From positions 1,184,001 through 1,248,000 of the forward strand of contig AP024596.1 of assembly GCA_019704295.1 (NCBI GenBank): a DNA stretch of 64,000 nt, read 5' to 3'. Under the pieces are notes generated by a model. That model saw only the letters and a program-made list of their open reading frames with translations. It was not told where the DNA came from and searched no databases. Source of the stretch: Sulfolobales archaeon HS-7 (GTDB lineage Archaea > Thermoproteota > Thermoprotei_A > Sulfolobales > Sulfolobaceae). Shown here piece by piece: positions 17,762 to 21,052 of this stretch. The stretch's first letter is position 1; the number at the start of each line of letters is the position of its first letter. The translations under genes were made by a program, and so were the position numbers.

Positions 17762-18216
17762 TTATTCATATCCTAGTTCACGAAAATATTTTTTTCCATT
17801 AAATCTTTTAGACGCTCCCTGAGAGTTTTTTTGACATTTTTACTCAACATTAAAGTCTCCATCGGTTTCCGTCGCATTCTTATCGGATCTTCCGTTATCT
17901 TAATGGACAAAAACTTTAATGAACTATTAACTTTTAACTACCGAAACCTAACTCTTTTTACATCAAATAAGTTTTAGGTCGACTAGGAGAGCTATGAATC
18001 AAATCTTACCAAGTAACTACTTCACATGATGCCTCGGTTTTGTAAAAATCGCTGTGTTTCATAACTTTTATAAAAATTATATAAATTTTTATATATTTAT
18101 TTTAAGGTACAGAATAAGATATGATTAAGAGGAATTCCGTAATTTGACTCATATTTTAAAAAAATCTCAAAATATAGAAATTACTATTAAACGTCGCACG
18201 CATTTGCGCCGTTAAT

Positions 18217-18370
18217 GCTTTCATTGCGGATTATAATTTATAAGAAAGTATGAAAAAATACAGTAAATTACTAAGTTTAAATCCCTATGCAGTGATTCCA
18301 CTAGTATTGAATTAAATTTGTTACAGTTACTAAAATAAACTGATTTTTTAAAGGATACGTGAATCACTCC
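18217..18370 (+). repeat. Dispersed ~160-bp repeat, copy A
   Basis: Core GTATTGAATTAAATTTGTTACAGTTACTAAAATAAACTGA, collinear with the copies at 32.5, 34.3 and 53.3 kb. Confidence 0.8.
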
Positions 18371-18407
18371 TACGGCTTTCTCGGTAGGAGATAAAACGTA
18401 AATGGAG

Positions 18408-19070
18408 TTAGAGAAGTCCATTATTATAAATTGCAAGTTTAGTAAGCTCATATATTACTTCGATGTTAGTTTCTACGGAGATTTGACAAAAATTAGCTTG
18501 AGTCGGAGAATATCCGTAAAGTAGAAATAGGGACCGGGCAACTAGTTTTGGAATATTATACCTCTTATTTTTCAATTCCTTTTCAATGTGGCTCTGAATA
18601 CCCAAATATATGTAACTCCATGACTGAGCTAAACCGTGCTTATCTAATATTGCACGTATTTGCTGCTCTACATTTTTTCTTTTTTTCCTGTACTGAAGCC
18701 ACTTAGCTGCCCTCTCTAAGTCTTTAGTCTTAATTGCCATTCTATATGCTGCAGATACGTCCTCGTTGGGAGTATTATATGATGCTATGTATATAATGTT
18801 ATTTAGGCCTTGTGTCGATTGTCGCACATCATCCTCTTCTATGCGTCCTCCCTTCAAGCTAAGTAACTTAAAGTGGAGGAATATTAGGATGAATTTGGCC
18901 TGGTCATCGTTAGTGGGCATTGGCTCGATTCTTAATGTCTGCCCGTCGAATACTATTCTACATTGGGAAAAAGGTTCTGCGAATTCGTATTTTTGATGAC
19001 CGCCATTCCTCATTATGGTCTCTACCTCGTTCCTGTATTTTTCTATGTATTTTTGTATCTTTTCCGTCAT
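18408..19070 (-). CDS. Hypothetical protein; C-terminal half resembles the rudivirus/lipothrixvirus-type capsid four-helix bundle
   Basis: 220 aa. Its ATG directly follows the upstream stop (TAAATG). Segment NVEQQIRAILDKHGLAQSWSYIYLGIQSHIEKEL. The CDS is solid; the fold call is tentative. Confidence 0.6.
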   Translation of the reverse strand: MTEKIQKYIEKYRNEVETIMRNGGHQKYEFAEPFSQCRIVFDGQTLRIEPMPTNDDQAKFILIFLHFKLLSLKGGRIEEDDVRQSTQGLNNIIYIASYNTPNEDVSAAYRMAIKTKDLERAAKWLQYRKKRKNVEQQIRAILDKHGLAQSWSYIYLGIQSHIEKELKNKRYNIPKLVARSLFLLYGYSPTQANFCQISVETNIEVIYELTKLAIYNNGLL

Positions 19071-20015
19071 TTACCTACACCTAGAACTTATTTTATCAAT
19101 AAAATTATTTAAATCATCATTATTTTCCAAATACTTAATACCTCCTTTTCTTATTAACGTAACTTTAACTTTAGAGTTCGTCCTACCGGTATTATCAACT
19201 ATGTTCAATTCTACGGCATCATCCCTTGGGTTAACAGCAACACCGTAAGGTACTTTAAATTTCTTTCGATTGCTTAGTAATTCTATGTATTTAAATAATT
19301 GAATCCAATCGACGCTTTTAAATTTGAGCCTTTTTACTTCAATAGGTATATAACAATTTCCTACTTGCAACAAAGTATCTATCTTACCTTCGATTGATCT
19401 CCCGACTTCCATGAAGTTAGCAATCTCATATTCCGGGTAAACATTAAGATTGTATTCCATTAAGAGCCTGGCTAGCTCGTATTGATAAAACGCCTCATTA
19501 TCTAACCCGTAACTTTTCGCGTCGATTTTCCCCTTAGTCTCGCTAGATATAATTTTAAAGATGTCCCTGATTATACCTTCCAAATCGTTTGGAGATTGCA
19601 CGGGTAATATGCCCATGGGTATTACAGGGTTAATATATTTCAGGCATTCATAATCAAACTCATTCTTGAAAAGGAGGACATTAATATTATACGAGGCTTG
19701 ATACCTATAAGAAATTGCAAATACACCGTAAAAGGAAGGTTGTACCTGTGAAGAATACTCGACAATTTGATCTAAGGCAGGTGTCTCTGTGCGACTTTCC
19801 TTAAATTCCAATAATAACCTTAAATTCAAGTCGGAGTCCGCCAATGCGAAATCTGCCCTTTTACGCTTAATAGGCATTTCAAGCATAGGAGTAAGATACT
19901 CTACATTATTAATTATGAAATTATTCGAAATAAGTAACTTCATTACTTGAGAATAGAACATTAGTTTACCTAAACTTTCCAGATTCGGGCCTGAAGAATC
20001 CTCGACTATGGCCAT
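19071..20015 (-). CDS. Tandem PD-(D/E)xK endonuclease-domain protein
   Basis: Domain 1: RADFAL..LLEFK..DQIVEY. Domain 2: EAFYQ..PEYEI..KIDTLL..PIEVK..IQLFKY..GVAVN. Confidence 0.75.
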   Translation of the reverse strand: MAIVEDSSGPNLESLGKLMFYSQVMKLLISNNFIINNVEYLTPMLEMPIKRKRADFALADSDLNLRLLLEFKESRTETPALDQIVEYSSQVQPSFYGVFAISYRYQASYNINVLLFKNEFDYECLKYINPVIPMGILPVQSPNDLEGIIRDIFKIISSETKGKIDAKSYGLDNEAFYQYELARLLMEYNLNVYPEYEIANFMEVGRSIEGKIDTLLQVGNCYIPIEVKRLKFKSVDWIQLFKYIELLSNRKKFKVPYGVAVNPRDDAVELNIVDNTGRTNSKVKVTLIRKGGIKYLENNDDLNNFIDKISSRCR

Positions 20016-20322
20016 ATTAAGTATTATTTTTATAAAGAATAAAATAATTAACTAATAAGATAGTCCAGGCGATTAAGGTCTATTTTATTAACTACAATCA
20101 ACAGATAAGATGGATACAATAAAGTAAACTGTAGAGCAAACTATAGAGCGTAATTCCCCTAATTTGCCAATTCGAGGGTGTCGTTTACGTCTCCCTGGCG
20201 GGTTATAGAATTCTCCGCTAAATTAATATATTTTAGTAAATAATAATTTAAATATATATTCAAATAATAGGAGAAATTGGAGTACCTATAATGTTATTAC
20301 AAATATGAGAGGGGTTTACAGG

Positions 20323-20586
20323 TTATACGTGAGGGAAATGGTTGTGATTTACAAAATCCTTCAAGGGGCAGAATAGACCAAAACTCCTCCTTTCAACAAG
20401 GGAATTGAATGACTTCACAAGGTTGTTGTTTTTAGCCACTTCGCCTATAGCGAAAAGGCAGTTGAGCACATCGTTTTTGTCTACAGAGGGATTTCCATCT
20501 TTAGGGTGAGGGACGAACTTGTTTAACTCCTTCATCTCGCTCACGTTAAGCTTCAAGTGGACAACATAGTATCTCTCAACCCTCAT
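20323..20586 (-). CDS. Hypothetical small protein
   Basis: 87-aa ORF overlapping the upstream 63-aa ORF by ATGA; no motif. Confidence 0.35.
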   Translation of the reverse strand: MRVERYYVVHLKLNVSEMKELNKFVPHPKDGNPSVDKNDVLNCLFAIGEVAKNNNLVKSFNSLVERRSFGLFCPLKDFVNHNHFPHV

Positions 20587-21052
20587 TCTAGAGGTGCAAA
20601 TAGCAGACTGTAAGGCAGTACAGTCCTCAAGTGTACTCGCTTTCTCCGTACAGAGTCAGATAAAGTCTTCAATTTCGTGTGATCTCCATAAAGTATTATC
20701 CTATCATAGAATTCTCGTGTTATTCCTAACAAAAATTTAGATTTTAAACTTAAACTTAATTTTACGTCGTACACTGTAATGTACTTTCTACAAGTAAATA
20801 AACTGAAATTTTACATCGGATAACTAACTAATTTAGCTTCCGATGAAGGAGTTTTGTAACTTCTACTAATTATTTGTGTTATTCACGTTTAACACAACCC
20901 TTATGCATCTCGTGAACTAAACGCTCAGAGGAAAACTGTCCCAATAATTATGTGGGTGAGACTATCAGAGTTGTGAACCCCCACGTAGAGAATTATACCT
21001 TAAGATCCTAAGTTGAGGATAAAGATTTAACTTATTGCAAAGAGTTATCGTC

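Follow-up and report, generated by a model that had tools for sequence, protein, structure and literature searches.

Members of the Sulfolobales are the hosts of rudiviruses and lipothrixviruses. Reviews describe the major capsid protein (MCP) as unique to Adnaviria, and a 2025 preprint took DUF732 as the closest structural outgroup. True MCPs consist of a helical bundle and an extended arm, which binds DNA and wraps it into the A-form; they act as homo- or heterodimers, and paralogues share little sequence similarity (PMC7189273). Extra, possibly non-structural MCP copies were reported in rod-shaped viruses (Hoswirudivirus, Demeterviridae). SIRV2-like variants with a truncated arm, and fused ones, occur among MCPs, which is a parallel to the gene described here, P0001; unlike it, the extra copies reside in virus genomes, next to the functional MCP and a glycosyltransferase (bioRxiv 10.1101/2025.08.23.671958).

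P0001 is encoded in the chromosome of Sulfolobales archaeon HS-7, whose genome is a single contig of 2,151,177 bp. The gene was first picked by eye for its MCP likeness in a stretch of 64,000 nucleotides, hereafter the window, to which the following coordinates refer:

18408..19070, minus strand: P0001, an ORF of 220 aa in which an N-terminal domain and an Adnaviria-MCP-like domain are fused (ORF list; 213-aa homologue with 38% identity)
18423..18707, minus strand: MCP-like helical bundle of P0001, residues 122-216 (model with pLDDT 81, structure searches); predicted helices at residues 123-144, 149-167, 173-185, 189-196 and 199-216
18666..18779, minus strand: basic segment of P0001, residues 98-135, net charge +5, continuing into bundle helix 1 (profile match, charge count)
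18780..19070, minus strand: N-terminal domain of P0001, residues 1-97, kept in homologues (sequence comparison)
19071..20015, minus strand: P0002, a 314-aa tandem PD-(D/E)XK nuclease gene (HSDR_N_2 and PDDEXK_3 matches in the family)
17762..21034: low-GC island between glycerophosphodiesterase-like and aldo-keto-reductase-like genes (GC content)
18202..18377: one copy of a ~160-bp non-coding repeat that is dispersed in the genome, lying immediately downstream of P0001 (blastn against the genome)

The original prediction compared a 37-residue segment with the SIRV2 MCP. This segment is present at P0001 residues 132-168 (about 18567-18677, minus strand), and the SIRV2 sequence used agrees with the GenBank record of SIRV2 ORF134. 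The proposed ungapped register was reproduced by BLASTP (13/48 identities, 21.6 bits, pairwise E 0.004). With MCP-only profiles, P0001 was ranked first among the 3,680 ORFs of the genome (E 0.034 and 0.007); one of these profiles included AFV2 ORF180, and after its removal P0001 was second of 3,680 (E 0.05). When the MCP alignment was searched against 47 genomes of the family, the sole matches were P0001 (E 0.026 per genome) and a probable virus contig with two MCPs. HHalign comparison of the P0001 family with MCPs gave a probability of 80-84% over 59 columns, with a score of 35.5 compared to a maximum of 25.8 across 150 block shuffles. The profile match extended to approximately residue 108, with a 10-column gap in the arm. 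The two homologues of P0001 on their own matched the MCP profile weakly (5.6 and 4.5 bits). No significant match to P0001 was found in database-wide searches of Pfam, PHROG and PDB sequences or in Foldseek, and no named relative was detected in Pfam, PHROG, PDB sequences, a 5.8-billion-protein search or the ESM Atlas. P0001 did not reach the cut-offs of PF12193 and PF21660 and had no match to phrog_7510; a scan of the genome with the two Pfam families returned zero matches, as did the control sets. P0001 is not a strict member of the MCP family. Two repeat proteins, P0004 and P0007, were discarded as candidate relatives because their matches were inflated by repeats.

Structural comparisons pointed to the same proteins. 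Residues 122-220 were modeled from a three-sequence alignment (pLDDT 81), which yielded five helices and not the four originally proposed, residues 189-196 forming an additional short helix. In a search of this model against 48,161 PDB representative chains, Adnaviria MCPs occupied ranks 1-5, 8 and 9, i.e., seven different MCPs in the top nine, at 9-18% identity. The five highest-scoring were SIFV (Z 8.9), AFV1 (8.5 and 8.2), SFV1 (7.7) and PFV2 (7.2), with rmsd 2.6-3.1, and ranks 8 and 9 were Yellowstone SIRV and SSRV1; the Z margin over unrelated helical domains was less than 2, in a range that the tool calls common for bundles. Non-viral bundles reached Z 7.1-7.3 in searches of PDB structures, the best unrelated chains scoring 7.1 in the search against the 48,161 representatives. 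Foldseek placed AFV1 ORF140 and SIRV2 at ranks 1-4, but with non-significant E values (0.38-0.9). Residues 1-95 of the model were aligned with SIRV2 residues 43-128. This alignment covers the last helix of both proteins, consistent with the suggested pairing of the final P0001 helix (NIEVIYELTKL, residues 202-212) with that of SIRV2. The full-length protein, modeled from the single sequence, gave a low-confidence model (pLDDT 42.7), in which the N-terminal and arm regions were poorly modeled and which matched domains of the PAL and HAD-cap types best, AFV1 ORF140 coming eighth. A PAL or HAD-cap identity for P0001 was not accepted because it rests on this unreliable model.

The closest known proteins are Adnaviria MCPs, namely those of SIFV (6WQ2), AFV1 (ORF132/ORF140, 5W7G/3FBL/3FBZ), SFV1 (6D5F), PFV2 (6V7B), SIRV2 (3J9X/3F2E) and SSRV1 (6WQ0), with Pfam families PF12193 and PF21660. 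Adnaviria MCPs and the P0001 bundle could be aligned over 75-91 residues with an rmsd of 2.5-3.9 A. They have the same ungapped register over helices 1-2, including the conserved glycine turn and an aromatic residue 22 positions ahead of this turn, and both have a basic stretch before the bundle. It is doubtful that such likeness reflects convergence or chance, in which case the partner of a mobile nuclease gene would simply contain a helical bundle of small size that resembles PWI, GH2 or HAD-cap domains. The Z scores of 7.1-7.3 of non-viral bundles and Foldseek E values of 0.38 or worse are in line with this explanation, as are the selection of the gene by eye and the fact that AlphaFold has seen capsid structures, which makes model and sequence likeness not fully independent. 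However, it does not readily account for seven MCPs among the top nine of 48,161 chains, or for genome-wide E values of 0.007-0.05 in the same register, with all 150 shuffles beaten. Because two kinds of test agree on one small protein class, we consider homology between the C-terminal half of P0001 and the Adnaviria MCP probable. The likeness is more than chance, but moderate and not overwhelming. The specific assignment to rudivirus MCPs stood as far as an MCP-like fold is concerned (structure search and controlled profile tests), but the likeness is to the whole class of Adnaviria MCPs, with SIFV and AFV1 placed above SIRV2 structurally.

P0001 differs from Adnaviria MCPs in that it is chromosomal, located behind a foreign domain of 100 residues and coupled to a nuclease, and in that it has an apparently shortened arm and one additional short helix and falls under all family cut-offs. 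The N-terminal part had been described as an unrelated region of ~110 aa; the foreign domain is indeed present, but it is only ~100 residues long, the MCP likeness starting near residue 108. This domain did not match MCPs (HHalign probability 0.07), and no family or fold could be assigned to it. The predicted basic helix (RKKRK) corresponds to residues 128-132, within a segment that, judged from its sequence, is probably a shortened form of the DNA-wrapping arm. A virion-forming role for P0001 is unlikely. DNA coating or filament formation by P0001 would also be less likely, because its DNA-wrapping arm seems short and has a foreign domain in front of it. We regard as unlikely that P0001 is an MCP homologue unconnected with viral coat protein, whether it simply binds DNA or confers specificity on a nuclease of the restriction type, for instance by recognising modified or unusually shaped DNA of any invader, or coats DNA as a small protein: the greater part of the arm seems to be lacking or reduced, and the best-kept likeness is in the bundle. 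A DNA-binding function would be compatible with the pI of the protein (9.2), the net charge of its basic segment, +5 as in SIRV2 residues 1-50, and the binding of DNA by the MCP arm (PMC7189273).

The stop codon of P0002 abuts the start codon of P0001, P0002 ending on the preceding base. The original prediction did not mention this nuclease, whose conserved coupling to P0001 is the chief hint at a function. P0002 carries two PD-(D/E)XK domains in one chain, and members of its family pass Pfam cut-offs (HSDR_N_2, PDDEXK_3). Two sets of residues, D55/E70/K72/Q83/Y87 and D213/E226/K228/Q239/Y243, were invariant in the four sequences of the family, and both active sites look intact at the sequence level. 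P0002 shares the D...ExK and QxxxY motifs with PD-(D/E)XK defence modules (HsdR N-terminal, Cas4-like, PADLOC PDC-S01/PDC-S26), as well as weak profile matches and the island context; it differs in having two domains in 314 aa, without a helicase, a methyltransferase or the Cas4 cysteine cluster. Just one cysteine was invariant in the four sequences, and a Cas4 identity was rejected since the four Fe-S-cluster cysteines are not kept. No DNA methyltransferase was found beside P0002, the lone motif match within ~30 kb being 16 kb away, and Type II restriction-modification was discarded for lack of an adjacent methyltransferase gene. Modification-dependent restriction would be in keeping with a PD-(D/E)XK nuclease that has QxxxY motifs and no methyltransferase, and the occurrence of such a nuclease in P0002 is a further point for P0001 as a DNA-binding subunit; a chromatin version of that explanation is difficult to reconcile with how rare and patchy the gene is. 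No single system in PADLOC-DB 2.0 matched both genes: P0002 was only weakly similar to Cas4 and P0001 to RTasYodC (E 0.003), and no PADLOC system matched P0001 convincingly. Prediction of a P0002-P0001 complex gave a score of 0.24 against a mark of 0.32 and was given no weight.

The two genes reside in an island with a GC content of 29-37%, compared to 45-46% in flanking genes and 39.6% in the genome. The ~160-bp repeat downstream of P0001 is MITE-like, with about 35 copies in the genome at 67-83% identity (blastn), and had no match in Rfam. A second low-copy repeat, with 2 other partial copies, was observed upstream of P0002 (20210-20368), as were two small overlapping ORFs of 87 and 63 aa (20323-20774, minus strand) with no family match. 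Neither att sites nor meaningful repeats were found within the island. The original prediction had also held that no other virus genes surround P0001, suggesting exaptation and not a provirus. Comparison of the window with SIRV2, AFV1, parts of SIFV, SFV1 and AFV2 by tblastx revealed no Adnaviria gene, in agreement with the former claim, and a provirus identity for the locus was rejected on the basis of the missing Adnaviria neighbours. We also judged it extremely improbable that the locus is what is left of a filamentous virus that integrated and is now decaying. The low GC might be expected of a remnant, as might the fact that two of the four loci carry broken copies, but no Adnaviria gene was found in the window by this comparison, neither gene was found in viral collections, and another lineage has kept the fusion and the order of the two genes intact at 38% identity.

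This other lineage is represented by an Acidianus-like metagenome contig (L080), which contains an intact 213-aa P0001 homologue that can be aligned along its entire length at 38% identity. The locus L005, from an A. hospitalis assembly, has a homologue whose frame is broken by a one-base deletion in a stretch rich in A. Gene order and the abutting or overlapping arrangement of the pair are kept in both. In a third genome (G010), only a C-terminal remnant of P0001 was detected (44-46% identity), ~1 Mb from the nuclease gene, and the N-terminal half of the homologue was not found; the nuclease frame is intact and followed by IS-like sequence, with no partner behind. A 35-bp sequence just behind the G010 nuclease (L003:7907-7941) is also present 2 kb before the remnant (L008:10779-10813) and may mark a rearrangement that separated nuclease and partner. 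Further family members were not found in 401 genomes of the phylum, 301 genomes of the class, IMG/VR, phages, plasmids or a GTDB pattern scan, four genomes of the genus to which G010 belongs being covered except for 8 kb each. Two independent intact copies of the pair are known, and copies are broken in two of the four loci; the P0001 family is rare and patchy. A comparison of the pairs in L005 and L080 showed 9 amino-acid replacements against 1 silent substitution, along with one frameshift. This excess of amino-acid changes points to possible decay in one lineage, where selection on the pair may have been relaxed. The nuclease is preceded by a ParB-like gene that is uninterrupted in L080 (L080:4663-5286) but, like the P0001 homologue, split in L005 (L005:2367-2988), which may reflect assembly errors in L005 or a decaying island there.

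The neighbours of the pair in L080 and L005 encode an Xre-HTH protein, an HExxH protein, a ParB-like protein and Cas_APE2256. Such a neighbourhood is typical of defence islands (the HExxH and ParB-like labels were given by motif). The neighbours in these two loci are also toxin-antitoxin-like, and P0001 and P0002, as a coupled pair located on an island and next to a dispersed repeat, could form an addiction module, in which the MCP-fold protein would neutralise a toxic nuclease. This is very unlikely, as the nuclease appears to have kept its frame both in G010, where no partner follows it, and in L005, where the partner is frameshifted. That the frame persists in genomes whose partner gene is not intact is more easily explained if the partner is an activator than if it is an antitoxin.

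A second MCP-like gene was identified in the HS-7 genome. This 94-aa ORF (genome positions 2066181-2066465, plus strand; L071:9682-9966) matched the MCP profile with E 0.003 and an HHalign probability of 54%, and would correspond to a stand-alone bundle without an arm. A relationship between this ORF and the P0001 family was not detected. It is located within an integrated conjugative element that encodes a VirB4-like ATPase and a Sulfolobus_pRN plasmid regulator, near a KwaA-like gene, and has relatives in G010 (71%) and G027 (partial). The KwaA-like gene codes for a 199-aa membrane protein (PADLOC E 9e-8) and is divergent from a 436-aa gene (L071:10040-12003), the two possibly forming an unusual Kiwa-like module. 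In addition, a contig in a Sulfolobaceae bin (L072, G014:C299) contained two tandem lipothrixvirus-type MCP genes and is probably a virus contig that was binned there. The plasmid-borne 94-aa ORF may point to a wider pool of the MCP fold beyond viruses. As to the direction of MCP transfer, capture from virus to host would be favoured by the fact that the gene is confined to a few of the organisms that these viruses infect; of the exaptation originally suggested, the absence of a provirus holds, whereas the virus-to-host direction is drawn from patchy distribution only.

We infer that P0001 and P0002 are co-expressed and act together. They may represent an anti-virus cassette made up of two genes, one encoding an MCP-fold subunit, that is rare in Sulfolobales and spreads horizontally, a tentative reading to which we give somewhat less than an even chance. 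In such a cassette, the MCP-like domain would pair with true MCP subunits, or join the MCP-DNA filament of an invading rudivirus or lipothrixvirus, through the conserved bundle. A divergent MCP copy could pair with viral MCPs because MCP heterodimers include paralogues with little sequence similarity. The N-terminal domain would then recruit or activate P0002, which would cut viral and possibly host DNA and would be quiet without P0001. That the captured coat-protein fold is such a decoy sensor, joining viral MCP and triggering a double-headed nuclease, is conceivable, if rather on the unlikely side. Mouse Fv1 is a host restriction factor derived from a retroviral gag gene. The logic proposed for P0001 would be analogous, in that a capsid domain taken over by the host would recognise the capsids of related viruses or poison them; however, fold and host are unrelated, and for P0001 the corresponding step is inferred and the effector nuclease is next door.

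In the literature, which we covered incompletely, there was no report of a cellular SIRV2-fold protein or of the P0001-P0002 cassette. The P0001 domain is probably a real capsid fold in a new candidate defence module. A host-encoded MCP fold in the natural hosts of these viruses bears on the origin of the fold and on whether it passes from one to another of viruses, plasmids and chromosomes. An antiviral cassette would represent capsid-derived immunity in archaea and be directly testable in the SIRV2-Saccharolobus model. If P0001 is a decoy, an immune system made from the capsid of the very virus it counters would be a first for archaea.
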